Source: Candidatus Cloacimonadota bacterium | Lineage (GTDB): Bacteria; Cloacimonadota; Cloacimonadia; Cloacimonadales; JAIOQZ01 | Length of the DNA: 64,000 nt | Reading direction: 5' to 3' | Assembly (NCBI GenBank): GCA_021108395.1 | Contig: JAIOQZ010000026.1 | Span: 30,051 to 94,050 of the forward strand | Shown: positions 4,801 to 61,414 of the stretch, in pieces | How positions within the stretch are numbered: the stretch's first letter is position 1 | How the letters are laid out: each line of letters opens with the position of its first letter | Position numbers and translations under genes: made by a program | The notes under the pieces: generated by a model | Seen by the model: only the letters and a program-made list of their open reading frames with translations | The model's database searches: none | Told to the model about the DNA's origin: nothing

Positions 4801-5140
4801 CGTGTGGGGCGGCTTCCGTCACGACGGCAGCGGCGGCCTGCACGGCAGAGCATCTGGAGATGCGCCAATTACGCCACCGCTCACGGCTGTAGCCTTTCCC
4901 AACCCCAGCGCCACCGGCGAGGTGCGCGTTCGCGTGGACGGCGCAGATGCCCCCATCGAACTGAAAATCTTTGACATCGCCGGCAACATTGTCTATCATG
5001 TCAAAGACATTGATCCGAGCCGGCCCATCCGCTGGAACACGTCCGGGGTTTCGTCCGGCGCTTACTTCGCCGTTGTTCGCACCAGAGATGTGTGGCAGGC
5101 TGAACGAATTCTGACTTTGCGAATTGGAATTGTGAAATGA
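1892..5140 (+). CDS. Secreted M6-family (immune inhibitor A-like) zinc metalloprotease with a C-terminal T9SS/FlgD-Ig-like sorting domain
   Basis: Signal peptide MSRLIRFAWLAVLLALVGILSAAP. Zinc site AVMAHEFGHSLGLPDLYS (HExxH followed by LGLPDxY, as in M6 peptidases). The last ~80 aa (AFPNPSATGEVRVRV..IELKIFDIAGNIVYHV..SGAYFAVV..LTLRIGIVK) match the T9SS type A C-terminal domain pattern. Confidence 0.8.
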   Translation: MSRLIRFAWLAVLLALVGILSAAPLQVLGKQPPRQPRRIHPIEALMSGARQDVPATTSRDMTANRLLVMLVEFQPDDNPATTGTGRFLRQEDAADYPISLGAPPHDKAFFELQCEAMRYYWLAGSMGNFDLEYEVWPQQGYYELPNEMAYYTPPGASSSLMIERFEAYFTDVFTAADADPGLTFGDFDHYMVIHAGSDWQHDVLGNTPSDVPAFFISVGDGKEVVVDDGATVIRHLSNVPETISQDERSFEEDGRTYYDGYGVINAVMAHEFGHSLGLPDLYSTSNFRPAVGYWDIMDSGGQTLLSLGYDLDDDGFFEVAYNIEGPVPALPGAWSRQLLWGDAMRADGLLRDITSLDLSQPVSIVAAGAVNNGLADNQTYVVKIPLSEREFVLIENRQTDHDDDGLTTLVSDNIDNPRVVLYPTGWNNDIADEYDYALPGWPGPNDRYYGGGLIAWHINEAVIYDEGGTDSNGDFVSNFDANTINTNYYRRGVSIIEADGLADLGNIHSMYWQGTVYEPFFPLMPTLDTDGFFADWSVEPFAGELSADTNPPLQTSDGLPSLFALFDIDSEHFHRPFHVPPRELTFRCRLQMFDGSLALPLLNVAENARLAWNSEPAFLAANALSELAVFDGTQMTTFSHLTDGVSESWDSPMGPQDIGLQTLFPVSVGDFRSDAPGAEFLLGSGSDMGIVRSPNIAATHAFGSASTGAPMIYIDENGVTVTVFTADDSLFVNTGGDWEAWAIPAARVCSDRRFLYAFSQGRLWLALPGHPLNELPYTELPFTSTPYEPVAFFDDADESRGGVYLQSPAGDIWRVGYGSGKAEEIFRLSPYTSAAPTQLALGDFAGSGAVNLVFGAADRIFVLSSLGRLVPEFPATIEDKVLQPQGFPRLVEMNGATLALMPGKDGGWLAFNETGDYLPAYSMFWAQAAADDPLFWEEETARLYFVSLVHETDGARPMLSWLDGQSNNPIVWGGFRHDGSGGLHGRASGDAPITPPLTAVAFPNPSATGEVRVRVDGADAPIELKIFDIAGNIVYHVKDIDPSRPIRWNTSGVSSGAYFAVVRTRDVWQAERILTLRIGIVK

Positions 5141-5157
5141 CATATTGGGAGGATAGT

Positions 5158-6051
5158 ATGCCCCGCAAATGGATGTTCTTTTTACTGCTCTTCGCGCTGA
5201 TGCTGCCGCTGGCGGCACAAGTGGCCGAAGAACCTGCCGACGAGGAATACCCCGAAGACTTCGTCCGCGTCAACTACGAGAAGAAATCGGTGGCCACGGC
5301 CGTTCTGCTGTCAACCTTGTTCCCCGGAGCCGGTCAGTTCTATGCCAACTACCGCTCGGTGACCACCTACATCTTTCCGGTCATCGAAATCGGCCTGTGG
5401 GTAGGCTTCATCACCTTCAACAACAAGGGCAGCGACATGGAAGACGAGTACATGGCCTTTGCCGATGGGAACTACAACCGCGTCAACCAGACCAACGTGC
5501 AGAACAAGATGATCGGCGTTATTCCGGCGCCTGCGCCCGGCGACAACAACCCAGACAACCGCGATGACATCTACGACACCAATCACTTCCGCCTCGACCC
5601 AACCAACACCCAGCACTTCTATGAGGACATCGGCAAGTATGACAAATACATCTTCGGGTGGACTGACTGGTACGAGAAATACGCTTATACGGGTATTGAC
5701 AGCATCGACTGGGTGTGGGATACTTCCGAAGACGATCCCGATCACAAGTGGGTAGGCAACTTCCCCACGCATCCCAACTTTGCAGACCAGGGCGATTATG
5801 ACACGACCAGCGCTCTACGCGGCGAGTATATAAGTATGCGACAGGACGCCGAAGACTTCTATGGAACCGCCGACCTGTTCACCTTCGGCATCGTGTTCAA
5901 CCACATCCTCTCGGCCATCGACGCCGTCCGCGTCACCCGCGCCTACAACATCGACTACATCAGCAAGCGTCCGCCAGTCGAGGTGGATGTGCAAACTTGC
6001 ATGAGAAGCGGCGGGCTCACCCCGATGCTCACGCTCACGCGGCACTTCTAA
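5158..6051 (+). CDS. Membrane protein, DUF5683-like, paralog 1 of 3
   Basis: GGAGG lies 6 nt upstream of ATG 5158 (the ORF track starts at 5137). Signal peptide MPRKWMFFLLLFALMLPLAAQ. Motifs LFPGAGQFYANY and NHILSAIDAVRVTRAYN are shared with the next two genes. C-terminal Phe. Confidence 0.65.
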   Translation: MPRKWMFFLLLFALMLPLAAQVAEEPADEEYPEDFVRVNYEKKSVATAVLLSTLFPGAGQFYANYRSVTTYIFPVIEIGLWVGFITFNNKGSDMEDEYMAFADGNYNRVNQTNVQNKMIGVIPAPAPGDNNPDNRDDIYDTNHFRLDPTNTQHFYEDIGKYDKYIFGWTDWYEKYAYTGIDSIDWVWDTSEDDPDHKWVGNFPTHPNFADQGDYDTTSALRGEYISMRQDAEDFYGTADLFTFGIVFNHILSAIDAVRVTRAYNIDYISKRPPVEVDVQTCMRSGGLTPMLTLTRHF

Positions 6052-6053
6052 GC

Positions 6054-6725
6054 ATGAAGAAACCGCTGCTGCTGTTGCTTGTGCTGTGTCTGGCTGTTCC
6101 AGTTATTGCACAGACGGTATCGGTACGTCGCGCGGTTTTGTTCTCGGCCATGCTCCCCGGAACCGGTGAGTTGTACTCCCACAGCTACAACAAAGGCGCC
6201 ATGTTCCTGGGCGCGGAGATGGCGATTCTTTTCACCTGGTGGCGGCTGCAGCAGGAGCGTCAGTGGAAGATTGACAGTTACCAGGCATTTGCCTCGCAAT
6301 ACGCCGGCGTACCCAAGGGCAGCGACGACAACGTATATCGTCGCCTGCAAAGCTACTATAGCAACGAAGACTACAACGCGGGCATCATTCGCGACGCCCG
6401 CAACTATTTCCTCATCTACAAAAATGACCCTGAGGCATATGAGGAATACGTCAGCGCCAACATCTATTCCGGCGACGATGCCTGGCAATGGCAGACACAC
6501 TCCAAGTGGTATGAATTTCAAACTCTGAGAAACGAGAAGCAGAACCTCGAAATATACGCGAAGTTCGCGCTGGGAGCTGCGCTCATCAACCGCATCGTCA
6601 GCATCATCGACGCCGCCAGAACAGCGCGTGGCTACAACGAGCAGGCCCTGCTGAACGGAACTATCTCCGTGCAGCCGGACTGGCATAAAATGGGGTTCTT
6701 CATCAACTATGAATACAGCTTCTAA
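6054..6725 (+). CDS. Membrane protein, DUF5683-like, paralog 2 of 3
   Basis: Internal ATG 6054 gives signal peptide MKKPLLLLLVLCLAVPVIAQ, 2 nt after the previous stop. Motifs MLPGTGELYSHSY and INRIVSIIDAARTARGYN. Ends ..NYEYSF. Confidence 0.65.
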   Translation: MKKPLLLLLVLCLAVPVIAQTVSVRRAVLFSAMLPGTGELYSHSYNKGAMFLGAEMAILFTWWRLQQERQWKIDSYQAFASQYAGVPKGSDDNVYRRLQSYYSNEDYNAGIIRDARNYFLIYKNDPEAYEEYVSANIYSGDDAWQWQTHSKWYEFQTLRNEKQNLEIYAKFALGAALINRIVSIIDAARTARGYNEQALLNGTISVQPDWHKMGFFINYEYSF

Positions 6726-7368
6726 GACCCTGCTGCTGCTGATTCTGCTGGCTCTCGCCACCACCTGTGGCGCCGCCAACACCCGCCTTGTCCTGTTGCG
6801 CTCGCTCGTTATCCCCGGCTGGGGCGAACTGAGCATGGGAGACCCTTCCGGCTACGTATTCCTCACCACCGAAGTGATGCTGTGGGCAGGCCGCTATTAT
6901 TTCACCAACGAATCCGATATTACGGAAAGCGCCGCGCACGACTTTGCGGTGCAATGGTCTGGTATCCGGCCAGGCAACTACGACGAGGACTACTGGCTCG
7001 ACCTTGTTCGCTATGACAGCTCTGGCTATGACGCCGGCGGCTACAACGAATCTGTGCTGCGCGACGCGCTGTCACGATACCCGGACGACCCTGAAGCTCA
7101 ACAGGCCTACATCGACGAACACGCCTACAGTGACATGTATGCCTGGGACTGGGTTGACCGCGAACATCGTGCTCGTTTCAGTAGTATGCGCAGTGATGCC
7201 AGCCAGTATTCCGACTACGCGAAGACTGTCACGGGCATCATCGTAGCCAACCACCTGTTGAGTGTGCTTAATACCCTTCGCTCCGCCAGATCGCGTCAAC
7301 GACTGGAAGTGGGAGTGCAGATGCAAACAGACGGCACACCCTGCCTGGCAGGAACACTGCACTTTTAA
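6709..7368 (+). CDS. Membrane protein, DUF5683-like, paralog 3 of 3
   Basis: Signal peptide MNTASKTLLLLILLALATTCGA. Motifs VIPGWGELSMGD and ANHLLSVLNTLRSARSRQ. Ends ..AGTLHF. Overlaps the previous gene by 17 nt. Confidence 0.65.
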   Translation: MNTASKTLLLLILLALATTCGAANTRLVLLRSLVIPGWGELSMGDPSGYVFLTTEVMLWAGRYYFTNESDITESAAHDFAVQWSGIRPGNYDEDYWLDLVRYDSSGYDAGGYNESVLRDALSRYPDDPEAQQAYIDEHAYSDMYAWDWVDREHRARFSSMRSDASQYSDYAKTVTGIIVANHLLSVLNTLRSARSRQRLEVGVQMQTDGTPCLAGTLHF

Positions 7369-7689
7369 GATGGGGCAGCGCCCCAACCCCTTTAGAAAGC
7401 TCACTACGCTATAGAAGGCTCACTCCGCTTCGCTACGTGACATAGCTACATGACAAGCTCGCTTTTGGGGAGAAACGGTGTAAACACCGTTTGCTCCTGG
7501 GACGAACAATCGGCTTTGAAGCCGATTTTCGCAAGCGAGGCCAAACAACTTCTAACGGATACTGCGTATCCTTATGCACAATATATACACAATTATTCTT
7601 ATGACACAAGGATGCGTTAGCATCCGCTAAGAATTTTTGATCAAACTTTTTGCAAAAAGTTTGCAGGGTTCAGGGGTGGAACCCCTGTC
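7369..7689. repeat. Mosaic palindromic-unit intergenic repeat, copy A
   Basis: String of hairpin units: 7372-7384 GGGGC-AGC-GCCCC, 7473-7492 AAACGGTGT-AA-ACACCGTTT, 7508-7527 AATCGGCTT-TG-AAGCCGATT, 7557-7571 GGATAC-TGC-GTATCC, 7610-7625 GGATGC-GTTA-GCATCC, 7643-7662 AAACTTTTTGCAAAAAGTTT and 7671-7687 CAGGGG-TGGAA-CCCCTG. Also carries the block AAGGCTCACTCCGCTTCGCTACGTGAC at 7415-7441. About 90% identical to 16537-16825. Confidence 0.9.
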
Positions 7690-8895
7690 TCAGTTTGCGT
7701 TCTTCTTCAGAGAGGCAAGGTTAACCGAGAACGCCATATATATCTGCGCCACCGGCACATCCCCCAGCATATCTGCCATCATCGAGAGGTGAAGGTCTCC
7801 GGCGCGGAAAGCATAGGAAAGGCCGCCGGTGAAGAAAAGCTGGTCGTTTTCGGGGATGACAGCGTAGGCGTGGTTCTCCTCGTCGGTGACGAGCGGCCAG
7901 TAATATGAGTTTTGCGACCCCTCGGCGATGGCGGGCTTGTCCGGAAAGGACAGCTCGCCGGCGAACACCCCCGGTGACTGCATGACACCCACGCGCGCGG
8001 TATATGGCCCCTGTCGTTTCTCGGCGCCGAACTTGAGACGGGTGCGGTCGTCAAAGTCGTCGGACTGCTGACTGCACATTTCGTGCTCGACGTCGGCCGC
8101 CAGCGTTACGCTGCCCAGTGTGCAGGCCGCGCCGGCGGCTATAACCATCGGGATAGTCACATTGTAATCCTCGTCATAATTCATGTCGAACGCGATAGTG
8201 GCAGGCGAAGTGAACGACCCGCCCAACGCCAAAACGCCGTGCTGCCAACGGATTCCGGGCTGCGCTCGTAAGGCGAAATCGGTTCTTTGCTCGCGGCCAA
8301 ACATCCAGTAATTGCGATAATCTTTTTGAATATAGAGATCGGCGAGCAGGTTGAGGCCGAGCGAGAGATCGCCCCAATGACTGCTCCCCGTCACCACAAA
8401 CTGCGAATGGGTGAACGATGGCCTCAGCGTTTGGCAACCGTTATCCTGGGTTTCGCGGGCGAAGCTGTCGAACTTGATGCTCTGCGGTACAGCGAACACG
8501 AGCGCCATATCCAGCCGTGGGTGCACTGGCATCCCGAATCCGACAATGCCGAAGGGGATAGTCGAATTGTACTCCTGCGTTATGTACACGTCCTGCGGGC
8601 GGCTGTTCCTGAATGGCTTGGTGTTCATCTCGTCGATGTTCGGCTTGAGAAAAAGCTCCATGTAGGCGTATGCGCCATCCAGTTGAAGCGAAGCCGGGTT
8701 GATGAGTACGCTGTTGATGCCGCCAGGCAAAGCCACGCCTGTGTGGCCGCGACCAACGGCTTCGGCGTTGAGATAGTTGCGCGAGAACTGGTCGAATATG
8801 CTCTGAATGAACTCGGGGGCGGCGTAGGGGATACCCTCGGCCACGAGCGCAACAGTCATCGTGAGTAGCAGCAAACTGATAATGAAGCGGTACAT
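7690..8895 (-). CDS. FadL/PorV-like outer-membrane beta-barrel protein
   Basis: Signal peptide MYRFIISLLLLTMTVALVAEG. Motif AEAVGRGHTGVALPGGINSVLINPASL resembles the N-terminal motif of the PorV/PorQ/FadL-like family. Alternating beta-strand pattern throughout. Confidence 0.6.
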   Translation of the reverse strand: MYRFIISLLLLTMTVALVAEGIPYAAPEFIQSIFDQFSRNYLNAEAVGRGHTGVALPGGINSVLINPASLQLDGAYAYMELFLKPNIDEMNTKPFRNSRPQDVYITQEYNSTIPFGIVGFGMPVHPRLDMALVFAVPQSIKFDSFARETQDNGCQTLRPSFTHSQFVVTGSSHWGDLSLGLNLLADLYIQKDYRNYWMFGREQRTDFALRAQPGIRWQHGVLALGGSFTSPATIAFDMNYDEDYNVTIPMVIAAGAACTLGSVTLAADVEHEMCSQQSDDFDDRTRLKFGAEKRQGPYTARVGVMQSPGVFAGELSFPDKPAIAEGSQNSYYWPLVTDEENHAYAVIPENDQLFFTGGLSYAFRAGDLHLSMMADMLGDVPVAQIYMAFSVNLASLKKNAN

Positions 8896-8910
8896 AGTAT
8901 TCTCCTTCGC

Positions 8911-10170
8911 TCAGGAACGGAAGATTGTCTGGTTGCGGTCGGGACCGACAGATACGATGCTGACCGGTACGCCGACCAGGCGTTCGATGGCCTGTACATA
9001 TTGCTGCGCGGCTTGCGGCAGATCGTCGAAACGGGTGATGCCGGTGATGTCCTCCTGCCAGCCGGGCATATCCTCGAACACCGGCTCGGCGCGGTTCAGA
9101 GCGCTGGCGCCGGCGGGGAAGCGACCGGTCTGCTCACCGTCGATGCGGTAGGCGGTGCACACCTTGAGCGTATCGAAGCCGCTGAGCACATCGAGCAGGG
9201 TGAACGCTATCTCGTCGAGGCCGTTGATGAGCGCTGTATAGCGAGCGGCCACGGCGTCGAACCAGCCGCAGCGTCGCGGCCTGCCGGAGACAGTGCCATA
9301 TTCGTGGCCACGGTCACGGATGCGCTGGCCGGTCTCGTCGTGCAGCTCGGTAACGAACGGGCCCTCGCCCACGCGGGTGAAGTAGCTCTTATAGACGCCC
9401 ACTATGCGATCGATGCGGCGGGTGGGGAAGCCGCTGCCCGTGGCGATGCCACCCATTGTGGTGTGTGACGAGGTGACAAACGGGTAGGTGCCCAGTCCCA
9501 CATCCAGCAGCGAACCCTGCGCTCCCTCGAACAATATGTTCTTGCCTGCGCTATACATCTCGTGCATCATGTATATGGTGGGCGCAAGGCATGGTTCGAG
9601 CCTGGCTGCCGCCTCGCGCAGCAGCGCGGAGGTCTCTTCCAACTCGATGGGCCGCACTTCGCCATAGTGGTGCCGGTGCAGGTTGGCGATACCGGCTCGC
9701 AACGCCTCCTCGTCGAACAGGTCGCCGAAGAGAAGATTAACCCGCGATGTGCGGTCGGCGTAAGCTGGGCCGATGCCACGTTTGGTGGTTCCGATTTTCA
9801 CGCGGTTGGCGTCGTTTTCGTGGCCGGCGTCGATGGTTTTGTGCAGCGGCAGCACCAGCGGCGCTCGCGGCGAGATGAAAAAACGCCCCTCGAACTGCAA
9901 TCCCTGGTCACGCAGGGTGTTCATTTCCTGGAGCAACTGAAACGGGTCGATGACCATTCCCGCGCCGAGGATGCAGATGACATCGGGATAGAGCAGCCCC
10001 GATGGAACGGTGTTGAAAACGAATTTAGCGCCCTCCAGCCAGATGGTGTGGCCGGCGTTGGCGCCGCCCTGAAAGCGGACGACGGCATGGGCGTCACTGG
10101 CGAGCACATCAGTGATTTTGGCTTTTCCTTCGTCACCCCACATGCAGCCCAGAACAGCGGTTGTACTCAT
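8911..10170 (-). CDS. purA: Adenylosuccinate synthase
   Basis: GDEGKAKITD P-loop and GGANAGHT motifs. The ATG at 10170 is preceded by AGGAG, whereas the ORF track begins at 10194. Confidence 0.92.
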   Translation of the reverse strand: MSTTAVLGCMWGDEGKAKITDVLASDAHAVVRFQGGANAGHTIWLEGAKFVFNTVPSGLLYPDVICILGAGMVIDPFQLLQEMNTLRDQGLQFEGRFFISPRAPLVLPLHKTIDAGHENDANRVKIGTTKRGIGPAYADRTSRVNLLFGDLFDEEALRAGIANLHRHHYGEVRPIELEETSALLREAAARLEPCLAPTIYMMHEMYSAGKNILFEGAQGSLLDVGLGTYPFVTSSHTTMGGIATGSGFPTRRIDRIVGVYKSYFTRVGEGPFVTELHDETGQRIRDRGHEYGTVSGRPRRCGWFDAVAARYTALINGLDEIAFTLLDVLSGFDTLKVCTAYRIDGEQTGRFPAGASALNRAEPVFEDMPGWQEDITGITRFDDLPQAAQQYVQAIERLVGVPVSIVSVGPDRNQTIFRS

Positions 10171-10481
10171 GCGAACTCCTCTTGAGAGCGCCACAGGATG
10201 TCACCTGAACGAGGCGCCGATTTCACTCTCCAGTGAACCTCTCAGCGGTTTTCTGTCAAGCGCCGATATTCATTGAAGCGCCTCGATCAAGACTCACGCC
10301 AGCGATATGAGACTGATTCCAGCCTGGCTAGCCCCACCGTGGTTGGCCTGCGTCAGCGCCGGCGAGCGTTGCTTCTCCTGGCGTCGATTGCAGCACATAC
10401 ATCGGCGGGTCAGCGTTATCGGTAAAATATGGGTTGACGAAAACATCCCACCCACTTTGATGTTCTGAAATAACTTCAACA

Positions 10482-11822: not shown

Positions 11823-11833
11823 AAGGTAACTTC

Positions 11834-12070
11834 ATGCTGTTGACCATACTCCTCGTTCTGTTGTTCGTCTCTGCCTTCATCTCGTGGAAAACCTACCGTC
11901 CCGCAAAAGGCAATACCGTGTTCTACACCTGGATCGTCGTGAGCGTGGTGTTCGCGTTCATGGCCAAGCGTATGCTCGTGCTGCCGCCCTACACCCATAT
12001 CTACCTGGCCGTTTCCATCATTCTGGGCCACTCGCTGGGCGTGTTTTTGCGCACTTGGGATCAGTGGTAG
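11834..12070 (+). CDS. Small membrane protein (2-3 TM), hypothetical
   Basis: 78-aa ORF that is strongly hydrophobic (MLLTILLVLLFVSAFISW..). Tightly spaced between FapA-like and hutH on the same strand. Confidence 0.5.
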   Translation: MLLTILLVLLFVSAFISWKTYRPAKGNTVFYTWIVVSVVFAFMAKRMLVLPPYTHIYLAVSIILGHSLGVFLRTWDQW

Positions 12071-12137
12071 CCATCTTGCCTGTTGACAGCCCTCGCGGCC
12101 TGCGAGAACCTGTCCTCATTACATAATGGGAGCGAGC

Positions 12138-15910: not shown

Positions 15911-16536
15911 TCATGTTCGGCAAGCAGGCAGTGGTGGCCAAGTTCTTCCTGGCACTGCTGCTGCTGCTGTGTGGCCTGCTGGCCGGGCTGCGACAAACGC
16001 TTCTGCTCACCGCCATGTCCGCGCTTTTCCTCTCACCTGCGCCACGCCTGTTACTGCAATGGCTGCGCCTGCTGCTGCGGCTCTGCCTGCCGTTTGCAGT
16101 TTTCTTCCTGCTGGGCATGGTTTCGGGCATTCCGTTCCCCGCCCAGTCGCTGCTGGCTCTGCGTGTCGCGCTGTTCCTGCTGCTGTCGGTCTGGCTGGCG
16201 CAAACCTCGCGCCTCGAACGCCTGGTACGCGAACTGCACCCGTTGCGGCGTATTCCGCTGGTGCATGACGCGCTGTGGTATCTTGTGGGGACGCTGCTGT
16301 GGCTGCCGGTCATCGGGGAGTGTCTGCGCAGGCGGCGCGGGGATGCCCGCTCTGTGCGGGCGCTGCCGAGGCTGCTGGTGGACGCGCTGGGAGAGGCAAT
16401 CGAGCGCATGGATGATATAGAACGACACACCGAAACAGCGCTGGCGCAGAGCGGTGACGCTTCGCGCTTCTCGGCGGCCAACCTGCTGCTGCTGCCGCCC
16501 GCGCTCGCCGCCATCGCCATTCTGCTCTGGCTCTAA
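15907..16536 (+). CDS. Polytopic membrane protein, hypothetical (weak CbiQ/EcfT-like look)
   Basis: GTGA overlap with the upstream stop. Leu-rich TM segments. No diagnostic motif recognised. Confidence 0.45.
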   Translation: MIMFGKQAVVAKFFLALLLLLCGLLAGLRQTLLLTAMSALFLSPAPRLLLQWLRLLLRLCLPFAVFFLLGMVSGIPFPAQSLLALRVALFLLLSVWLAQTSRLERLVRELHPLRRIPLVHDALWYLVGTLLWLPVIGECLRRRRGDARSVRALPRLLVDALGEAIERMDDIERHTETALAQSGDASRFSAANLLLLPPALAAIAILLWL

Positions 16537-16825
16537 GAGCAGGGGCTCTGCCCCTAAACCTTTAGAAAGCTCACTCCGCTATAGAAGGCTCACTCCGCTT
16601 CGCTACGTGACATAGCTACATGACAAGCTCGCCTTTTTGGGAGAAACGGTGTAAACACCGTTTGCTCCTGGGACGAAAATCGGTTTAGAAGCCGATTTTC
16701 GCAGGCGAGACCGAAAACTTCTAACGGATACTGCGTATCCTATGCACAATAGTTATTCTTATAACACAAGGATGCATTAGCATCCGCAAAAGTTGTGGGG
16801 TGTCAGGGGCGGAGCCCCTGCCTCT
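16537..16825. repeat. Mosaic palindromic-unit intergenic repeat, copy B
   Basis: Units at 16541-16555, 16644-16663, 16678-16697, 16726-16740, 16770-16785 and 16804-16820, with the block at 16585-16611. Colinear with copy A, but one arm of the T5GCA5 palindrome is missing. Confidence 0.9.
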
Positions 16826-17950
16826 TCACTCGGCGATGATCTCTACATTGGCGCGAGGAATGAGGACGCAGTTGCCGTCTTCCAGCTCGGCTTCGAGGAT
16901 GCGCACCTTTGTTTCGCTTTCCACTACCTTGGGCTCCTCCGGCATGGCCACTACCTTGCCAATCTTGCCGAAGTTGGGCTGGCGGATAACGCGGATGGTC
17001 TTGCCCACCTCGAGGAAGGGAAGTTCAGCTTCATCGTGGCCATCGCTTGCAGTCGTAACGGCCTTGGGGATAATGATCTCCGGTCGGATAACACCGGCGC
17101 GAATCTGTGTCTTGCCGTGCATCGAGGTACGGTGGCCGTTGTATTTATTCAGCAGGTCGAATGTGTGCTGCGCCATGCGGATGTTGCCAAAGCCCTCGGT
17201 GACGACAAGGGTGATGCCGACGTTTTCGTGACCGGTGATGGCGACGCCAATGTCATAGCCGAGCAGTTTCTTCAAGTCCTGGTCGTTGATGCCGCCGGTG
17301 ATGATGCCTTTTACGCCGACTTCGATCGCCTTCTTGACCGACTCGTAGGGGATAAGCTCGCCGCTGACGATAATCTTGTCTTTGTGCGATTCGTCGATGC
17401 GATCGGGCGTGAGGATTTCTTCGGGGCTGCTGATGAAACAGGCGATTTCGCCGGTGATTTCGTTGCCGATGCCGAAGATACCCTGGATGTACGCCGAGCG
17501 GTTCTCGACCACCACTCCCTCTTCGGGAATCACCTCGACCACGATGCCATCGATGAAGGCGCGCACCTCGATGGGGTTGCGCGGCTCACGCAGCAGCGCC
17601 TGGCCAGTGTGACGGCTTACGCTTTCTATCTCGCCGTCTGTGGGCGACTTGACAGCGGTCTTGAACATGCCCATGAAGCCCTTGGTCTGGGCAAGCACCT
17701 GGCCTTTGGTTATCATGTCGCCTTCCTTGACCATGAGGAAGTTGCCAACCATGTCGGGCGTCACGCCCAGTTTGTTGGCCAGATTCAGCGGCACCACTTT
17801 GCCCGGAAGCATGGTGACGGCAACCACGTCCTCAGCCTTGACGGTGTCTCCCTCGGAGGCTTTCACCTCGCCCTTCAGGGGAAGTATCCGCTGCTGGCGG
17901 ACGATCATGCTATCGGTTACGGCGAGTCCTTGTGAATATGATTTTCCCAT
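16826..17950 (-). CDS. Conserved hypothetical protein with a barrel-sandwich-hybrid-like N-terminal region and a KOW/SH3-like C-terminus
   Basis: True start is ATG 17950 with AGGAGGA 4-5 nt upstream. The 81 codons upstream in the ORF track overlap the preceding gene and look like junk (Arg-rich). KEGDMITKGQVLAQT is lipoyl/biotinyl-fold-like but has no modified Lys motif. Confidence 0.7.
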   Translation of the reverse strand: MGKSYSQGLAVTDSMIVRQQRILPLKGEVKASEGDTVKAEDVVAVTMLPGKVVPLNLANKLGVTPDMVGNFLMVKEGDMITKGQVLAQTKGFMGMFKTAVKSPTDGEIESVSRHTGQALLREPRNPIEVRAFIDGIVVEVIPEEGVVVENRSAYIQGIFGIGNEITGEIACFISSPEEILTPDRIDESHKDKIIVSGELIPYESVKKAIEVGVKGIITGGINDQDLKKLLGYDIGVAITGHENVGITLVVTEGFGNIRMAQHTFDLLNKYNGHRTSMHGKTQIRAGVIRPEIIIPKAVTTASDGHDEAELPFLEVGKTIRVIRQPNFGKIGKVVAMPEEPKVVESETKVRILEAELEDGNCVLIPRANVEIIAE

Positions 17951-24407: not shown

Positions 24408-25057
24408 GGCATATTCTCCGGCAGGGGCAACGGCGGAACTCCCACCGGCCCGGGTGTAAATTTATCGACCAGCAGTTTCACGCTCTCGCCTGTCTCTGTG
24501 CGCAGTTCAAGCACGTCCAACTGACCGGCTGTGCTATAGTCGAGGTTGACGAACCCTGCACCGCCAAGCTTCTGCACTCGGCCAATGCGGTACTGGCTGT
24601 CGAATGTGAAAACGAGGCTGTCCATTGTAGCGGTTCGCGTCTGCACTATTTCTCGCAGGTAATCTCGTTGCAGGCGCAGCAGGCCGTCGTCAATCAGCAG
24701 CAGGCGGCGGGTTTGCTCGTCCAGCGGCTGGGCTTCTGTCTGACCCATCATGCTCACCACCAGCAGGCTGTCTATGTAAACGGTGGCGAACACACTGCCC
24801 GAAGCCGCGAACAGGCCGCCCTCGATGATGTCGATGCGGATGGCGCTTCCGTTCTTGCGCAGCACCGCTTCTTTGTGCAAGGCCAATCCCTGCGCCTCGA
24901 TTGTCACCACGCCATCGATGCGGAACGAGCGCCACATTTCGAGATGCTCGCGCACCTGGCGTTGGGCGTCGCGGTCGGGGAACAACCCCGCGCAACCGGC
25001 GAGAAGCAGCGCGAGAGTGAAAGCGAAAATGGCGTGGGTGGCGCGGCGACTACTCAT
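24404..25057 (-). CDS. Lipoprotein, LolB/DUF4292-like, tandem paralog 2
   Basis: Internal ATG 25057 gives MSSRRATHAIFAFTLALLLAGCAG (lipobox LAGC). Colinear with the upstream paralog. Confidence 0.6.
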   Translation of the reverse strand: MSSRRATHAIFAFTLALLLAGCAGLFPDRDAQRQVREHLEMWRSFRIDGVVTIEAQGLALHKEAVLRKNGSAIRIDIIEGGLFAASGSVFATVYIDSLLVVSMMGQTEAQPLDEQTRRLLLIDDGLLRLQRDYLREIVQTRTATMDSLVFTFDSQYRIGRVQKLGGAGFVNLDYSTAGQLDVLELRTETGESVKLLVDKFTPGPVGVPPLPLPENMP

Positions 25058-45900: not shown

Positions 45901-45903
45901 TGA
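39955..45903 (+). CDS. Bacterial alpha-2-macroglobulin family protein, thioester-less
   Basis: ATG 39955 with GGAGGA 8 nt upstream (the ORF track starts at 39886). ETAFFYPNLRTDENGEAVFSFTVPDALTRWKCLAFAY is the conserved A2M motif. The expected thioester position reads LPYLMESQHPSS (no CxEQ). Confidence 0.8.
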   Translation: MKTKNNATGFRPRKTTHVQRLLLLLLLTTCMMGATEHQLWQQVKQLETQDLPRRADEAVQTILEEAHAAGDTVQYIQAVIYRVKYLRVLREDGYVPVDSLLKAEIARSDGVARALLWSMRGEQLAQMPVGYGGRYHWGTPARTRGPVDPNDLRTWDNATRSAEIMRCYERSLVQPELLLVTPLTDFRSLMKLGGGDSTPLNTTMLHLLAHRALDYYQSYSPPPAMHDIVPLDESWLCSAHELQQRSVPPGDSLSANARALRLYQQLQRSVAPQKTEAGVLYTLDRLEWVYGSLPQSYITYDNMLDTMMRRWRDNQVYSDICYKRAELWSEFGRTYNRTGEGNADARQKAVRYATMGMEAYPDSHGGKNCKGIYKTHLSPEAAVFILPVYPPAQDFPVRIDYTNTDSLTLDLYRVDYSVATSRLHSYTELITLMDSVDVFRSYAVNLPASTDYNEHSSEFIIEGLETGAYLCNIRAATGPFSKPMLFQVTSLDLLIMGSRDTLDFHVVDRVSGQPVPGAGIVLTRRVNREWINSATLVTDESGFAPYTDFPRTTLIISVQTSDDCFISRLPLSFWSARRRHDHLVRTFLTDRAIYRPGQTVHFTEIIWNHSGFLNFTPDRHRRQFVLSGPKHSSESSLVLRPDEFGACSGSFTLPRGGATGRYCISLVYYKTHCILVEEYKRPTFSLELNQPQGSFALGDSLTIRGRATAYAGYDLSSASVRWSVATTANINRQPRYQVPGSIIASGETSIASDGSFEFDFPLQILSHTDDARQIFEVNVEITDAGCETRDANLSFTASTQAIHIEADSQERLECSEVATIGVQVQNAAGQPIDAVVQMQVERLVSPDRLLRVAKWESSDVPLYDREEWVRRLPHQPWSDELDQDTWAVAETMLKTTISTATETGYELKNCRGWTQGAYRLIFTATDAQGHQTTLVRHITLYDREARQPPLPQYLWFVAPNSVESGEIAEILIGSAAPDVWAIVEIQRSGKLERQYMRLNNSQQRISIPIIDSDIGGIFVSVAFVKDNRQYIEQKTIQVPARQMQLDVHLTTLRDTLRPGAEETWTLQVNDYFGEPVTNAQIAATLYDASLDAFKNLQWQPRFLDRFRRQLIYIRSANNPEPQRQQLSRRYVAHYQSYKRRTLNWQLGRRMYSPYQRGGISIYGFSDGTEVKGFETNDIAVETQVASYAARAPAGSTPPVDDKPEAPRTKLAETAFFYPNLRTDENGEAVFSFTVPDALTRWKCLAFAYTRDAAQGNLTRKFVTQKQLMAQPNPPRFLRASDVTGLPLRIQNVTGEAIAGTARLEILDAFTMRPLGEAFGLNEPERPFAAAALGGTSVRWDVTVPQGVQAVVLRFRATGDNHTDAVELTLPVLPGRMLVTETLPMPVRGNQSRSFTFDRLRDSTSPTLTHQALTLEFTSNPAWLAVLALPYLMESQHPSSDAVFSRLYANTLAAHIVTPDIECTFALWRELNDGPALLSPLERNHDLKQALLEETPWVRQAMTESQQRRDIALLFDANRLRNESATALRKLRQMQSGGGWPWFPEMRPSEWITRRIVTGLGKLNAVGALSEAQSTEVARMAVPAIVWLDSRAAERYRHILDNSISPDSMHIGSSEAHWLLARSYWPQMTVRDDAAEALDYWMSQARKYWTRQPIATKAMIALALHRTGDATTPGRILASLRDYAIRDEETGWHWKLPQSWWWYDRPIETQALLAQAFFEIEGDTQSADEIRLWLLKQKQTSNWETNTATADACWALLTQGADWLAGNQAVSIEVGGEMVQAGMDDTAQAEAGTGWFRHSWQATEVAPELAEVEVANPNPGPAWGALYWQYFENLDRIEASAEMPLQLRRELLREQMTDQGAELVRISDGDPLRVGDKLVVRLTIETDRAMEYVHIKDMRAAGAEPLDVLSGCEWRDGLCYYRSTRDTATYFFIERLPRGLYVFEYRLWAAQPGVYKAGIGTAQCMYAPEFSAHTQGETLEVSE

Positions 45904-46104
45904 CAAGCTCGCTTTTGAAAAAAGCGAGACCAAAAACTTCTCTAAAAGGGTCACTCCGCTTCGCTACATGACTGGAACCTTCGTTTCCTATGTACAAAAG
46001 AATCATTTTGTGCACAGGATGCGTTAGCATCCGCTAAATGTTTTTGAACCAAACTTTTTACAAAAAGTTTGGCGGGGTGTCAGGGGCAGAGCCCCTGTCT
46101 CTTA
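45901..46104. repeat. Mosaic palindromic-unit intergenic repeat, copy C (overlaps the stop codons of both convergent genes)
   Basis: Units at 45908-45928 CTCGCTTTT-GAA-AAAAGCGAG, 45974-45988, 46017-46032 GGATGC-GTTA-GCATCC, 46051-46070 AAACTTTTTACAAAAAGTTT and 46081-46097 CAGGGG-CAGAG-CCCCTG. Block at 45945-45972. Confidence 0.85.
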
Positions 46105-49100
46105 ACAAGCTCAACAACTTCTCGACCTGATAGCCACTGTGTTGCATAGCCTTCCACAGGCTTTGCAGCCACTCACCCAGGCGAGACACAGCCTCGTCTT
46201 CCTCGGACTGACCCTCGCAGCCGGCGGCGCAGCGCAACAGCAGCACAGCCGTCACCCAGCCCAACATCTGCTCGAACCGCTCCTGGTTGAACCACAGCAC
46301 ATCGCGCCAGCGATTCACTTGCAGCCACTGCCGCACATCCTCGTCGGCCAGCATATGCTGCACGAAACGAAGCGGCGTTTCCCAGTCGCTGTCGCTTTTC
46401 ATAGCCTGCTGGTGCTCGGTGAGGCTGGCGATAAGCTCGACGGCGCTTTCGGCGCGTTCGTCCAGCAGGTGACGATATTGCTCACGCATCGGTTGCAGCA
46501 GTAACCACTGGTCGATGTAGCTACGACTGCGCTCGGCAGCCCATTTGTCACCCTCGACCTCGCCCAGCCGATGCACCAGCGCCCAGCCAACCAACACCAG
46601 GCGGTCGAAGCTCTGCTCGAAGTTGCACTTGACCGGAGCATACTCATGCAGTGATGAATAGATGGAACTGATTCTTTTGCGCGAGGCCAGCAACTGTAGC
46701 TCGCGGTGAACACGCGACCATACTTTCTCGGCGTTTTCGGAGTGGCCTGTCATCTCGACCAGTCGAGCCAGCAGGGAACTGTACATCGGCGCCAGGCTTT
46801 CCAGCAACTCTGGCATGGCGCTCTCTCCGGCTGCGGCCAGTTCTTGCAGGCGCGTGGCCTCGAACACGGCCCCAAACGCCTCCTGCAACGGCTGCAGGAA
46901 GGTCTCCTTCATCGCCATGCGCATGTCGGGCACGCCGCGACCGGTCAGATAGCGTTCGAGGTGCGCCCAGCGTTGGGCGCTGTCGTCGGCCACTTCCTCG
47001 AATTCGATGAAAACGTGATACTTGAACGCCCCCAGCTCGACGAACAGTCCCTCATGATGCAGGCTGTCGGCGCGGCGGATGTACTGTAGGCCGACCACAT
47101 GATCGCGGAAGATGACGAAGCGGTCGTCGCCGCGCCGCAGGCCCAGGCCTTCGCCGACACTGCCGGGGTTGAACCCGTCGCCGCGTCGGGCGGTGGTGTT
47201 TTTCACCCAGCCGGCGGCCTCGTCGAAACGGTTGTTGTATATCACCAGCGCCCGTTCGTCGCCACAGCGGTTGGTGTGGGCAAAGACGTTCTGGTTCACC
47301 TGGCCGTGTGCATCGATAAAGTCGTAGAGGGCGAAGTTCTTCACCTCGGCAAAGACGTGCCGCAGCTTCATCAAGGGGAATATCTCACGCTCGTGGCGAC
47401 GCACCAGCCACTGGTCGGGCTGCTCGTCCCACATAGCGCGGCTGTACTCCATGCCATAGCGCTCTTTCAGGCCTTCGATCTGCCCGTGGCCAAACATGGG
47501 CAGACCAGGCAGCGTCACCATGAGGGTGCACACGCCGAAGTATTTGTCGTCCTGCCCGAACTGCGCGATGGCCGTTTCCTCGTCAGGGTTGTTCATGAAG
47601 TTCACCAGCCGCTTCAGAATCTCGGGGTTGAATTCGAGCACGTTGCGAATGGTCTGGCGATATTTCTCGTTCTCCTCGCTCTTCAGCATGTTCATGAAGG
47701 CGCTGTTATAGACGCGGTGCATGCCCAACGTGCGCACAAAGTAGCCCTCCATCAGCCAGAAGGCCTCGGCCAGCAGCAGCGTGTCGGGGGCCACTTCGGC
47801 AACCTTGTCCACCACCTGTCGCCAGAATTCCTCCGGCATGGCGGCGTCGAACTGCTCGCGGCTGAGGCCGCATTCGGCGCGACTGGGAATGTCGCCGCCA
47901 GAGCCTGGTTCGGGAAACCACAACCGCTGAAAGTGTTTCTTTGTGAGCGTCATGGCGGCGTCGAAGCGGATGATGGGGAACTGCTGCGCAATGGCGACAA
48001 TCCTGTCGAGCACCGCCTGGCGCACTTCCGGCAGCAGATAGTTGAGCTGCGCCGTGTCGTTCCAGGGCATATTGGTGCCGTCGTTGCCGTGATAGATGTA
48101 GCGTTCGCCGTGGTCGTCGGCGCGCTTGAACGTCACTGCGGCGTCGGTGCGGTCGTAATAGTGATCCTCGACCCACAGACCCACGCCGGGCTGCTCGCTG
48201 AGATTGGCGCTGTTGTAGGTGTAGGCGGGAAACGGCGGCTGCGACGACTGCACGAACCACTCAGGATGCTCGATTACCCAGCGCGAATCGATGCCCATGT
48301 GATTTGGCACCATGTCACTGCCCATGCGGATGCCACGTTGCCAGGCGCGATGCCTGAGATCGGCGAGGGCAGCTTCGCCGCCCAGGTCTTCGGCGATGGT
48401 GTAGTCGTGCAGGGAATATGCGCTGGCAATGGCGTCGTCACGGCCAAGCATCTGTTTGAGGCGGCGCGAGGCGAGGCTGCGCTCCCATACCCCGATGAGC
48501 CACAGGCCGGTGAATCCCCAGTCGCGCAGGCGGTCGAGCTCCTCGTCGGGAATCTGGTCGAGGCGCGTGATGGTGCGCTGATAGCGGCGCGAAAGCTGGT
48601 CGAGCCACACATAAGTGCTCTTGGCGATGAGCAGCAGACGCGGCATCCAGTCGCGGTCGGGACTGAACCGCTCCGGCTCGTCTTCGGCATGGCGGCGGGC
48701 AAACTGAAGCACCTGGCTCTCGCCCTTGCCATCGAAGTGTACCTTGTCCTCTTCCGCGATGAAATCCATGCCGCGCAGCAAGACATAGAACCACTCTTCC
48801 AGCAGGCTGCCCCAGCGACGGCGAATGTAGTCGAGCTGGCCGGGGATGGAGTGCGGCTCGGCCTCGGCAGGCTCACGCAGCATTTGCACCAGCGGCTTGT
48901 TGTCGGGGCCGAACCCCGGCTGTGCGGCAAAGAAGTCGTCGATAGCGCTCATGGCCGTGACAAAAGCAGGCTGCCGACGCACCGCGTCGCTGCGGAACAT
49001 ATCGTCGAACCCGGCGAAAGCCTCGTTGCTGTCGGTGAGCCAAAAGCGCAACAGTTCCCGTACGATCAGGCTCTGGCGGTCATCGCCGCCAGCTTCGAGC

Positions 49101-50868: not shown

Positions 50869-50910
50869 TGTGCCTCCCGCGAGATTTACGCGCAATTTAC
50901 TCTGTTATCA

Positions 50911-56592: not shown

Positions 56593-56617
56593 CGCTACCG
56601 GATAACACAATAACAAT

Positions 56618-57714: not shown

Positions 57715-58010
57715 TTTGTAAAAATCAGCCGAACTGATTCTTTTAGATCAGCGGCGGGTAAGACAGGGGCTTTGCCCCTTTGAAGGCTCACTCCGTTACA
57801 CTACGTGACGTAACCCCATCCACTTTTTGTAAAAAGTGGAAACAAAAACTTTTACGGATACTTCGTATCCTGTGCTCGGAATATTCTTTTGAGACAAAGG
57901 AAACGAAGGTTCCTGTCATGTAGCGAAGTGACTCTTATAGAGAAGCTTTTTGGATTTTACCTTTTTCTCGAAAAAGGTAAACTTGTCTTTGTCAACACAA
58001 GGAATAATAT
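57715..58010. repeat. Mosaic palindromic-unit intergenic repeat, copy D
   Basis: Units at 57723-57739, 57765-57779 AGGGGC-TTT-GCCCCT, 57820-57839 CCACTTTTTGTAAAAAGTGG, 57856-57870 GGATAC-TTC-GTATCC, 57899-57913 GGAAACGAAGGTTCC and 57957-57980 TTACCTTTTT-CTCG-AAAAAGGTAA. Block at 57783-57809, with an inverted copy at 57915-57936. Confidence 0.85.
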
Positions 58011-58021
58011 TTGGAGGACAC

Positions 58022-59452: not shown

Positions 59453-59650
59453 GCGCTAAGAGATAGGGGCACCGCCCTTTTCAAGGCTCACTCCGCTTCG
59501 CTACGCGACTTGAACCCCGTCCACTTTTTGCAAAAAGTGGAATCAAAAACTCTTAATGGATGCTACGCATCCTGTGTACAAGACAAATCTATATGTATGT
59601 AGGAAACGGCGTTTCCGCAAGAGTTTTTGATCAAATTTTTTACATATGTT
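59453..59650. repeat. Mosaic palindromic-unit intergenic repeat, copy E
   Basis: Colinear with the first ~140 nt of copy D. GC hairpin, block at 59483-59509, 59521-59540 CCACTTTTTGCAAAAAGTGG, 59558-59572 GGATGC-TAC-GCATCC, 59602-59616 GGAAACG-G-CGTTTCC. Confidence 0.85.
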
Positions 59651-59745
59651 TGGCGCGTGAAATGTACTTTTTTCCGAAAAACATTGCGCGTCTGTCCCGT
59701 TTTCATTTTAATGAACTCACAGTATAAAGGGACATAACCGGAGGC

Positions 59746-60894
59746 ATGATGGAATACTTCCTGACCGAAGAACAGAATGAGATTCGTGACATTGCACGCA
59801 AGGTGGCCGAAGAGAAGATAAAACCGTTGCGTCAGCAATATGACCATGAAGGCATCTTCCCCTGGGATGTTGTCAAGGTGATGGCGCAGACCGACCTCTT
59901 CGCCGTGCTCATTCCCGAGGAATACGACGGCATCAGCGGCAAGGTTACCGATCTGGCCATCGTCACCGAGGAGCTGAGCCGCGTCGATGCCGGCATCGCT
60001 CTGGCGTTCGGCGGTACTGGACTGGGGGTCTATCCCATCATCATCTCTGGCAACGAAGAACAGAAACAGAAATACCTGCCGCGTGTGGCTTCCGGCGAAT
60101 CGCTCTGCGCCTTCGCACTCACCGAACCAAACGCCGGTTCCGACGCAGGCGCCATCGAGACGACCGCTGTCCGCGACGGCGACCACTTCATTATCAACGG
60201 CACCAAGCAATGGATAACCAACGGCGGCGAAGCTGATATTTATACCGTGCTCACCATCACCGACAAAAGCAAAGGCGCTCGTGGCGCGTCCATGTTCATT
60301 GTCGAGAAGGGCACGCCTGGCTTCAGTTTTGGCAAGAAAGAAGACAAGATGGGCATCCGCGCCTCTGCCACCCGCGAATTGATATTTGAAGACTGCCACG
60401 TTCCGGCGACCAACCTGCTGGGACGCGAAGGCCACGGCTTCATGGTCTCTATGAAGACATTCGACAAGAGCCGCCCGATGGTGGGTGCACAGGCTGTGGG
60501 CATTGCCCAGGGCGCCTACGAAGAAGCCGTGAAGTTCGCCAAGGTGCGTCATCAGTTTGGCAAGCCGGTCAGCAGCTTCCAGGCTGTACAGTTCATGCTG
60601 GCCGACATGGGCACGCAAATCGAGGCGGCGCGGTGTCTTGTAATGGCCACCAGCCGCATGATCGATGAAGGCGTGAAGCGTTACAGCAAAGAATCTGCCA
60701 TGTGCAAGCTCTTCGCCAGCGATGTGGCCATGAAAGTTACTGTGGACGCCGTGCAGGTTATGGGCGGCGCCGGCTATATGCGCGAATACCCGGTCGAGAA
60801 GATGATGCGCGACGCCAAAATTACCCAGATTTATGAAGGCACCAACCAGATAATGCGCTCAGTTATTGCCTCGAACCTGCTGAAAGAATTTTAG
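59746..60894 (+). CDS. Acyl-CoA dehydrogenase (short-chain/butyryl-CoA dehydrogenase-like)
   Basis: LTEEQNEIRDIARKVAEEKI.. N-terminus, FALTEPNAGSD, and a C-terminal catalytic Glu region (YEGTNQI). The start could be the second ATG at 59749. Confidence 0.9.
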   Translation: MMEYFLTEEQNEIRDIARKVAEEKIKPLRQQYDHEGIFPWDVVKVMAQTDLFAVLIPEEYDGISGKVTDLAIVTEELSRVDAGIALAFGGTGLGVYPIIISGNEEQKQKYLPRVASGESLCAFALTEPNAGSDAGAIETTAVRDGDHFIINGTKQWITNGGEADIYTVLTITDKSKGARGASMFIVEKGTPGFSFGKKEDKMGIRASATRELIFEDCHVPATNLLGREGHGFMVSMKTFDKSRPMVGAQAVGIAQGAYEEAVKFAKVRHQFGKPVSSFQAVQFMLADMGTQIEAARCLVMATSRMIDEGVKRYSKESAMCKLFASDVAMKVTVDAVQVMGGAGYMREYPVEKMMRDAKITQIYEGTNQIMRSVIASNLLKEF

Positions 60895-61352: not shown

Positions 61353-61414
61353 AGCAGCCTCCTGAACAGAGCTAAGTCACTCACTTTTTGCAAAAAGCGA
61401 GCTTGCCTTCCTCT

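Follow-up and report, generated by a model that had tools for sequence, protein, structure and literature searches.

Extragenic palindromic repeats have been well studied in Proteobacteria; the Cloacimonadota, to which the DNA considered here belongs, form an uncultured phylum that is common in anaerobic digesters. Among larger intergenic elements, the ERIC/IRU sequences of enterobacteria and the Correia elements of Neisseria are reported to affect the stability of neighbouring mRNAs, and the BOX elements of Streptococcus pneumoniae (boxA-boxB-boxC) carry internal modules whose presence and number vary between constant ends. The REP/REPIN sequences are short extragenic palindromes that alternate in orientation, are accompanied by accessory motifs and lie between convergent as well as unidirectional open reading frames (ORFs) (PMC3733652, PMC3116915), and they characteristically bear, at one palindrome end, a GTAG or CGTC tag that stays unpaired (PMC3733652). 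No REP-type repeat has been described for Cloacimonadota in the literature searched. The 64,000-nt stretch analysed here (the window), part of a 239-kb contig (JAIOQZ010000026.1), holds five intergenic regions, elements A to E, and one solo fragment that are all built from a single oriented half-module, H, of ~95 nt; together with 8-9 kb past each end of the window, the region examined amounts to ~81 kb of one genome. A first-pass annotation of this DNA had likened the five regions to REP/BIME mosaics, and the likeness holds at the level of architecture, with extragenic palindromes, alternating orientation, accessory motifs and sites between convergent and tandem genes. What, then, is the repeated unit, and why does it sit where it does?

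The first-pass annotation saw in these regions a set of palindromic units strung together in different number, order and orientation. Read directly, all five regions, both of the outlying fragments and every unit that it listed are present, far beyond chance, but the disorder was overstated. When the pieces are oriented away from the nearest stop codon and aligned, the mosaic takes on a fixed order, that of one half-module H, used in both orientations, always reading away from a stop, alignable over its entire length and interrupted by inserts. This order runs from a stop codon through a GC clamp (hairpin 1, hp1), the sequence AACCCC, a second hairpin (hp2), an A-rich linker and a third hairpin (hp3) to an AT-rich centre. 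H starts with T[AG]A-(A)GAGA, and the end consensus on both sides of an element is T[AG]A(A)GAGRCAGGGGC. Its first hairpin is CAGGGGC-N3-GCCCCTG followed by AACCCCRY, and its second a perfect AT-rich palindrome, CCACTTTTT-GY-AAAAAGTGG, of the general form N4-5 TTTTT..AAAAA N4-5, with the variants AAAC/GTTT, GAACC/GGTTC, TTTACC/GGTAAA and CTCGC/GCGAG. The linker, A-WCAAAAAYTCTT-RRC, then leads to hp3, which is GGATGC-N3-4-GCATCC or, more generally, GGWWNC-N3-4-GNWWCC (variants GGATAC/GTATCC, GGTTGC/GCAACC and GGAAAC/GTTTCC), followed by TGTGYAYAAG and the AT-rich centre. The hairpins are thus flanked by GAGA and AACCCC (hp1), RY and AWC (hp2), and RRC and TGTG (hp3). The GC content of the elements is 0.40-0.50, against 0.58 for the genome.

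Two inverted H arms make up an imperfect palindrome of 200-320 nt, and the five elements fall, as had been claimed, between convergent gene ends (A, B and C) and between tandem genes (D and E). Element A (7366..7692) separates the convergent genes 6709-7368 (+) and 7690-8895 (-), element B (16534..16828) the convergent genes 15913-16536 (+) and 16826-17950 (-), and element C (45901..46107) an alpha-2-macroglobulin gene (+) and an alpha-amylase-like gene (-); in all three the arrangement is H(+), centre, H(-), with both gene ends trailed by a sense H. Element D (57715..58021), between thiS (+) and glnA (+), and element E (59453..59748), between glnA (+) and an acyl-CoA dehydrogenase gene (+), consist instead of a full H(+) and a partial inverted H(-) that is devoid of the clamp on the side facing the start of the next gene. 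The inverted ends of B (16539-16555 versus 16805-16821, 17 nt) are 94% complementary, and E has 26-nt arms that are 81% complementary and lie 64 nt apart. All seven clamp-bearing arms point away from the stop of the adjacent gene, a rule that the minus-strand fragment at 61381 obeys too, and in four of the seven, namely the two of A and the two of B, the T[AG]A at the arm end is the stop codon of the flanking gene itself. The genes whose stops form these arm ends terminate within 0-3 residues of the ends of their orthologues, and D and E carry a spare TAAGA(GA) after the real stop. The earlier statement that the GC clamps abut the stop codons stands for A and B, where the clamp starts 2-5 nt after the stop, but not for E (11 nt), D (49 nt) or C, where the called ORF reads through the clamp.

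To what extent is this placement confined to non-coding DNA? R1, a covariance model of hp2-linker-hp3 from whose training the two arms of B were left out, finds 11 half-modules in the window at E < 1e-4 and one more at E = 0.076, and recovers both untrained B arms (40.7 and 20.3 bits). With 93% of the window coding, all 12 matches are non-coding, lying in the five regions and at 61359-61408, i.e. in six loci, for which the probability by chance is ~0.07^6. The family occupies three of the four convergent junctions, three of the 14 tandem gaps of at least 25 nt (D, E and the fragment) and none of the three divergent gaps. Plain counts are similarly skewed: the 22-nt core of a block that recurs in the elements (see below) occurs five times against 0.02 expected, the clamp AGGGGC-N3-GCCCCT five times against 0.21 expected, and the perfect palindromes of the window that combine arms of ≥9 bp with loops of ≤6 nt, ten in number, all lie in the five regions or at 272-291. 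The last of these, the hp2-like palindrome TTTGCTTTTTCAAAAGCAAA in the gap upstream of the tRNA-Leu gene, had been listed as a fragment of the family; it exists as described but is a look-alike that the covariance model does not detect. A search for direct repeats places the five regions in common repeat families, and BLAST over the 17 kb past the window ends adds no further family copy. A plus-strand bias, as of a replichore-oriented motif (all five block copies first noted are on the plus strand), was ruled out by the inverted arms and the minus-strand fragment at 61381; since this fragment is in sense with its gene, orientation is set by the adjacent upstream gene and not by the chromosome strand.

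The second line of evidence concerns the hairpins themselves. Pairing was counted over hp2 and hp3 in ten half-modules, nine from the window and one from locus L011 of another species, and in three rows of the alignment a block or nested insert had been removed by hand beforehand, with the paired columns left untouched. Of the stem cells, 95.3% pair, against 80.0 ± 1.9% in shuffles; changes on both sides are found in eight of 16 pairs and in 24 cells, against 8.2 in shuffles, none of 500 of which reached as high, and sliding the 3' partner by 1-3 columns leaves at most 58% of the cells paired. As judged from aligned sequences, these counts show that the base pairing of the hairpins has been kept via compensatory change. 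They make selection for the stem clear and do not separate RNA from single-stranded DNA. The linker and hp1 keep their sequence instead of covarying. Element A folds equally well on both strands (z = -6.9 and -7.0 versus shuffles), z values across the elements range from -4.5 to -7, and a count of wobble pairs on the plus strand gives three G-T versus two A-C mismatches, too few cases to tell RNA from DNA.

The copies themselves point to duplication. A and B share 93% identity across 281 aligned bases, with 19 substitutions and three larger indels, and the genes flanking A are unrelated to those flanking B; the repeat families stop at the element edges, beside the flanking stop codons. The left arms of D and E (D_L and E_L; arms are denoted in this way throughout) are 80% identical. 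To the degree that such comparisons allow, they show that unrelated genes have received copies, at their 3' ends, of whole elements as well as of single arms. The block and two extra hairpins are secondary inserts, gained after the elements or arms had been copied. The block, described in the first-pass annotation as a non-palindromic unit of its own, is TWKAAGG-STCACTCCGCTTCGCTACRTGAC (25-33 nt; 7409..7441, +), with further 22-nt cores at 16590-16611, 45951-45972, 57788-57809 and 59488-59509, all on the plus strand; these five copies stand, but they are joined by a sixth, truncated and inverted, at 57916-57935 in D_R, and the block proves to be an insert at three sites within H: after hp1 (D_L and E_L), after AACCCC (A_L and B_L) and before hp3 (C_L and D_R). 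In every case its sense matches that of its arm. The other inserts are nested in hp2. In A_L and B_L this hairpin is split open, its stem CTCGCTT / AAGCGAG (7458-7464 and 7533-7539 within 7458..7539 (+) of A) enclosing ~70 nt with two further hairpins, AAACGGTGT-AA-ACACCGTTT and AATCGGCTT-TG-AAGCCGATT (7473-7492 and 7508-7527 in A), which are similar to each other, with their differences compensated. The long-range closing stem of the resulting three-hairpin junction is changed on both sides between A and B (CTCGCCT / AGGCGAG in B), and the CTCGC-type hp2 that is split in these two arms is intact in C_L (45908-45928). A tRNA-like origin of the junction was rejected, ARAGORN finding just the tRNA-Leu at 515-602.

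In relatives the family is met only here and there. At L011 (glutamine synthetase 81% identical) a related H directly follows the glnA stop; this copy, CAGGGGCTTTGCCCCTG-AACCCCA-CGAACCTTTTTCGAGAAAAAGGTTCG-ACCCAAAAGCTTTG-GCGGTTGCTTCGCAACC, scores 68 bits with R1, has the same module order and compensated stems, and is 63% identical to E, its positional counterpart, and up to 69% to other arms. L013 and L030 (both with a glutamine synthetase 80% identical) have no H after glnA. L014 (ammonia-lyase 70% identical) has, at the site orthologous to A, a 52-nt spacer with the classic hairpin GAACCGGCTTCGACCGGTTC followed by T9, and the clamp motif does not occur in ~73 kb of these relatives other than L011. 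With orthologous sites empty or occupied by a plain terminator and that of L011 filled, the family is patchy, i.e. gained, lost or moved, and not a conserved feature of these genes. L010 (glutamine synthetase 87% identical), the closest relative, is a special case: there glnA overlaps tail to tail with the orthologue of the gene preceding B, with no element at either end, and the breakpoints of the rearrangement coincide with elements B and E. The two convergent L010 genes (1800-2440) share a 6-nt overlap; their window counterparts (15913-16536 and 58022-59452) lie 41 kb apart, each trailed by an H arm. Two further observations were made at the ends of glnA. Downstream of the H of L011 (11600-11960) there is another palindromic element, made of two inverted copies AGCCC..GGGC-GGCA..ATAGCCTGGGG..CCCCAGGAA, bracketed by two direct copies of the terminator-like ACAGGGAGCGC..CTCCCTGTTTT and just preceding three apparent minus-strand tRNA genes. 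At L030 (1801-1832) the glnA stop is followed by a second, 24-nt copy of the last codons and stop of the gene (ATGAACCTGTACTACAACCTGTAG), which is closer to the glnA end of the window than to that of L030 itself, as if it were a remnant of recombination at the gene 3' end.

A homologous module also occurs in a phage. A scan of IMG/VR with hp1 and its tail returned eight contigs from five families, each with the clamp and A(A)ACCCC followed by an adjacent second hairpin. One of them, L028 (IMGVR_UViG_3300029732_000235), is a phage fragment that encodes a terminase large subunit and an SPP1-type portal; between these two genes (2020-2331) ~8 different short-loop hairpins stand in a row, and the array holds a module colinear with H over ~95 nt (R1 29.8 bits, E ~4e-4) whose hp1-AACCCCA is identical to that of L011 at 24 of 24 bases. 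The named homologues of the L028 portal belong to Clostridiales prophages and come from metagenome-assembled genomes (MAGs), at 65-71% identity, and neither of the phage contigs L028 and L029 matches the deposited phages. A viral scan with GCCCCTGAACCCC-N3-9-TTTTT was set aside, since besides L028 it found just two unrelated phage families with ordinary hairpins. For the 22-nt block core the matches listed number at least two in GTDB genomes and at least five in JGI metagenomes, about the chance number, and none is from this lineage, the scanned sets being without this species; the matches at L006 to L008 look random. In four others (L003, 250-520; L004, 1760-1880; L005, 1740-1860; L009, 170-290) the block core, TCACTCCGCTWCRCTACGTGAC, lies inside perfect hairpins (e.g. 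CCCGTCAC-loop-GTGACGGG) that adjoin look-alike hairpins with other stems; these contigs, from unrelated phyla, are those of a delta-proteobacterial MAG, a Saprospiraceae MAG and two JGI contigs. Might H then belong to a larger class of mobile hairpin cassettes, so far undescribed, that pass from phylum to phylum with phages among their carriers? The module of L028, the four other viral families and the nesting of units within units (the block at three sites, two hairpins in an hp2 loop) would fit such a class, which we nevertheless think rather improbable; if it exists, it would point to a so far unrecognised enzyme able to place copies of hairpin units within or next to hairpins already present at gene ends. 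The spread across phyla is hinted at by a single contig, L028, whose host is inferred, and is to be taken as a lead.

How does H compare with the systems named at the outset? Like the REP/BIME sequences of E. coli and the REPINs of Pseudomonas, it consists of extragenic palindromes downstream of genes, in alternating orientation and with accessory motifs between them; like REPINs, it forms inverted doublets with a spacer that are able to fold into a larger hairpin (A, B and C, and also E); and, as in both, many diverged copies conserve their pairing, the 12 R1 matches and every palindrome with ≥9-bp arms being located in non-coding DNA of the window. By contrast, H has no unpaired GTAG or CGTC tag beside hp1, hp2 or hp3 (the sole GTAG lies in the loop of the block, on the opposite strand), it is a three-hairpin module of ~95 nt rather than a single palindrome of 20-40 nt, and its arms open with a stop-codon triplet. 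Membership of the REP class otherwise includes a cognate RAYT gene, as a rule with repeats on its flanks, and tens to hundreds of copies per genome; the 81 kb hold five composite loci plus one fragment, and no RAYT is seen in them. The absence of any RAYT, IS200-type or other transposase had been noted before and extends, together with that of integrase domains, to the called genes of the window and of the 8-9 kb past either end, the sole ORF outside the public annotation in the domain check being a ferredoxin-like protein. ERIC/IRU and Correia elements resemble the family in being non-coding, imperfect palindromes of 100-300 nt with inverted ends in transcribed intergenic DNA, but the sequences are dissimilar, no TA duplication is seen here, and the arms are strings of small hairpins that can occur alone. 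The modular build is shared with BOX, whose sequence is unrelated and whose modules are direct, as opposed to the two inverted arms here. A study on sponge mitochondria describes repetitive hairpin elements as small units that proliferate in intergenic DNA and insert into other hairpins (PMC2800124); to these and to the GC clusters and double-hairpin elements of fungal mitochondria the likeness is conceptual only, as they are organellar and unrelated in sequence. That the units differ from known families, as had been supposed, agrees with the database searches: against Rfam, the whole window gives at gathering thresholds only the tRNA-Leu, and element A, the phage array and three loci with block-like hairpins give only noise at E up to 10, and blastn of element A against PLSDB plasmids and INPHARED phages gives no match.

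The resemblance to intrinsic terminators deserves separate mention, because it bears on function. A GC-rich hairpin right after the stop and paired hairpins between convergent genes are common to both, but the sequence behind hp1 is AACCCC (TTTG / TTTTC in D and E), so that hp1 falls outside the usual definition, which includes a T run; moreover, hp1 is not found in the 73 kb of relatives, one of which (L014) has the classic hairpin with T9 at the site orthologous to A. A scan for terminator patterns yields two sites that touch the elements, hp3 in the right arm of B (16770-16785, -) and a stem overlapping the right clamp of A (7673-7691), and neither is the clamp with a T run. That hp1 is the generic terminator stem of the clade was rejected on the grounds that the clamp is absent from the relatives other than L011 and that the same genome has a classic terminator, at 56618-56639 and followed by T5. 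The latter lies in a 295-nt gap (56593-56887) between an aldehyde:ferredoxin oxidoreductase gene and thiF, which also holds two C6/G6 palindromes, CCCCCCTGTCAAGGGGGG (56701-56718) and CCCCCCTTGACAGGGGGG (56823-56840), that are reverse complements of each other and represent a different hairpin family, again with no match in Rfam. Two other candidates were dropped: integron attC sites, since by eye no RYYYAAC ... GTTRRRY cores bound the elements and the called genes encode no integrase domain, and a CRISPR reading.

The first-pass annotation had offered mobile DNA, 3'-end stabilisers and protein-binding arrays as possible roles and made no choice among them. Taken together, the findings speak for copied DNA in which selection maintains the hairpins, and leave an RNA and a DNA role unseparated. 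The best reading, to which we assign a probability of roughly 0.55, is that H represents a new family of extragenic palindromic repeats of the REPIN/BIME kind, restricted to a lineage and copied from one gene 3' end to another, where its members would probably act as transcribed hairpin barriers. Since the arms start directly at, or shortly behind, a stop codon, they would be transcribed with the upstream gene, as 3' untranslated regions or as spacers within operons. The GC clamp and the hairpins behind it might then form a barrier that ends or protects the upstream transcript, i.e. acts against read-through or 3'-to-5' decay, as shown for REP/BIME in E. coli; between convergent genes the two arms would constitute a two-way barrier, and the absence of the clamp from arms that face the start of a downstream gene is consistent with such a role. 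Copying could be the work of a transposase encoded elsewhere or of recombination between arms, the latter being in keeping with the synteny break at B and E. Several points weigh against this reading. There is no T run after hp1, and with a classic terminator elsewhere in the genome, termination by H is only a proposal. Processes acting on DNA can also maintain the symmetry of near-perfect palindromes whose loops measure 0-4 nt. Mobility is deduced from the similarity of the copies, with no transposase, clear target-site duplication or filled and empty site within the species to be seen, and genome-wide copy number and intergenic bias are extrapolated from 81 kb of one genome.

Perhaps, then, the family is nothing but a selfish, MITE-like (miniature inverted-repeat transposable element) transposon, whose terminal inverted hairpins are used by a transposase elsewhere and whose insertions at gene 3' ends are harmless and of no function to the host. 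Its inverted ends (terminal inverted repeats being evident in B), the 93% identical copies at unrelated loci, the GC content below that of the genome, the patchiness in relatives, the homologous module in a phage contig and the break of an independently assembled contig within A would all be expected of such DNA. No direct repeat was found outside the element ends, however, so that no clear target-site duplication is seen, and the terminal T[AG]A could be either element or duplicated target; no transposase is encoded within 81 kb, which also contain no related autonomous insertion sequence with the same ends, and there is no similarity in plasmid and phage collections. Moreover, the internal stems too are kept by compensatory change, whereas a DNA transposon needs just its ends, and the strictly sense orientation of the arms to the upstream gene, together with the missing clamp on start-facing arms, suggests filtering by an effect at the transcript level. 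Purely selfish DNA is on these grounds unlikely, though not far-fetched.

The same body of evidence bears on two readings that credit the elements with other functions, both of which we regard as doubtful to a still higher degree. The palindromes might be sites for dimeric proteins (e.g. nucleoid proteins or partners of the IHF or gyrase type, as proposed for the BIMEs of E. coli) or cruciform insulators between convergent units, in line with their near-perfect symmetry and very short loops, the AT-rich centre between the arms, and a linker and hp1 that are conserved in sequence rather than covarying. Yet hp2 and hp3 vary freely in sequence and keep their complementarity, a pattern that marks a stem of nucleic acid and not a sequence recognised by a protein, and no candidate for a binding protein was seen. 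Could the elements instead be structured non-coding RNA genes or cis-regulatory RNAs, e.g. multi-hairpin small RNAs that start from a promoter of their own in the AT-rich centre and terminate at the clamps? Strong folding (z of -4.5 to -7), covariation and, in A and B, a three-hairpin junction with a compensated closing stem would speak for it; against it, both strands fold equally well, arms in both orientations occur in one element, searches of Rfam as far as E = 10 yield no matching family, and parts are gained and lost in a modular fashion unlike that of a conserved RNA gene. The elements contain just two sigma-70-like matches, both weak (9/12) and on the minus strand, promoter-like sites overall being barely above shuffles. 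Finally, an assembly artefact or chimera limited to this contig, a concern raised with the first-pass annotation, is hardly credible any longer and already refuted: the ENA assembly ERZ26872896 reproduces element A and the D-E stretch base for base, the Logan assembly made independently from SRR15668623 agrees in all 54 bases at the right end of A, the copies are diverged rather than identical, and homologous modules exist in another species (L011) and in a phage contig (L028). The Logan contig stops 54 nt inside A, as is expected at a repeat.

H is accordingly a well-defined new family in a poorly known phylum, one whose module grammar is unusually tidy and for which phage carriage is hinted at, not a new principle. 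An ordered module with strong covariation lends itself to modelling and scanning, and the strict anchoring to stop codons makes the choice between selfish DNA and a 3'-end signal testable. Repeats of this kind break short-read assemblies, as illustrated by the Logan contig that ends in A, and coincide with synteny breaks, so they matter for the quality of MAGs and for genome rearrangement in the lineage; the phage copy hints at horizontal movement.

The individual elements depart to different degrees from the canonical order. In A, the stops that serve as first arm triplets are TAA at 7366-7368 and, read on the minus strand, TGA at 7690-7692. Its left arm opens with hp1 at 7372..7384 (+; GGGGC-AGC-GCCCC, then AACCCC), and its right arm (7598..7687, -; model score 78.5 bits) is a canonical H, with hp1 at 7671-7687, AACCCTG, hp2 at 7642-7663, the linker and hp3 at 7610-7625. 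B has hp1 copies at 16541-16555 and 16805-16819, and its right arm has lost hp2 by a 27-nt deletion. In C, the left arm is without hp1 while its hp2 (45908-45928) is intact, and the stop of the alpha-2-macroglobulin gene (TGA, 45901-45903) falls within C's own sequence, ATGACAAGCTCG; the right arm is canonical (hp2 46049-46072, hp1 46081-46097), and the called amylase-like ORF (46058-49504, -) runs through its clamp to end in hp2. D combines a full H(+), with hp1 at 57764-57780, the block, hp2 at 57819-57840 and hp3 at 57856-57870, with a clamp-less H(-) arm at 57887-57988 that contains the inverted truncated block. E likewise has a full H(+), comprising the spare TAAGAGA (59457-59463), hp1 (59464-59480), the block, hp2 (59520-59541) and hp3 (59558-59572), and a clamp-less H(-) arm at 59590-59660. 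The solo fragment (61359..61408, -; 33.6 bits) retains a CTCGC-type hp2 at 61381-61402, which starts 12 nt past the stop of the Gln/Glu-tRNA synthetase gene (61415-63085, -) and is in sense with it.

The surrounding genes are ordinary chromosomal ones: purA, a histidine ammonia-lyase gene, a FapA-like gene, genes for type IX secretion substrates, thiF-thiS, glnA, and the acyl-CoA dehydrogenase and Gln/Glu-tRNA synthetase genes. The glutamine synthetase encoded by glnA, between D and E, is 100% identical to a protein that NCBI assigns to a 'Candidatus Cloacimonetes bacterium' MAG. Compared with the ENA record of the same contig, the window is without 19 nt near 1385 (~1380-1400), which marks it as a separate assembly version; the deletion splits a PorV gene (395 aa in the ENA record) into the ORFs 721-1422 and 1476-1889, and the 25 kb compared past it (1892-14891 and 52001-64000) are identical in the two. 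Two direct repeats unrelated to the subject of this analysis were seen within the window. One, of 87 nt and 86% identity (50866-50952 and 53764-53850), spans the start codons of two minus-strand genes together with their upstream leaders, one gene being a ferredoxin-like ORF of 274 aa and the other encoding a ~924-aa protein with FlgD_ig and Por_Secre_tail domains, and looks like a common promoter or leader. The other, of 78 nt and 90% identity (24922-24999 and 25568-25645), lies inside adjacent minus-strand genes for proteins of 217 and 199 aa with no Pfam domain, which appear to be tandem paralogues. An ORF of 142 aa at 60924-61352 (-), uncalled in the public annotation of the contig, has a GGAGG ribosome-binding site and ~5 Cys-X2-Cys repeats that are zinc-ribbon-like.

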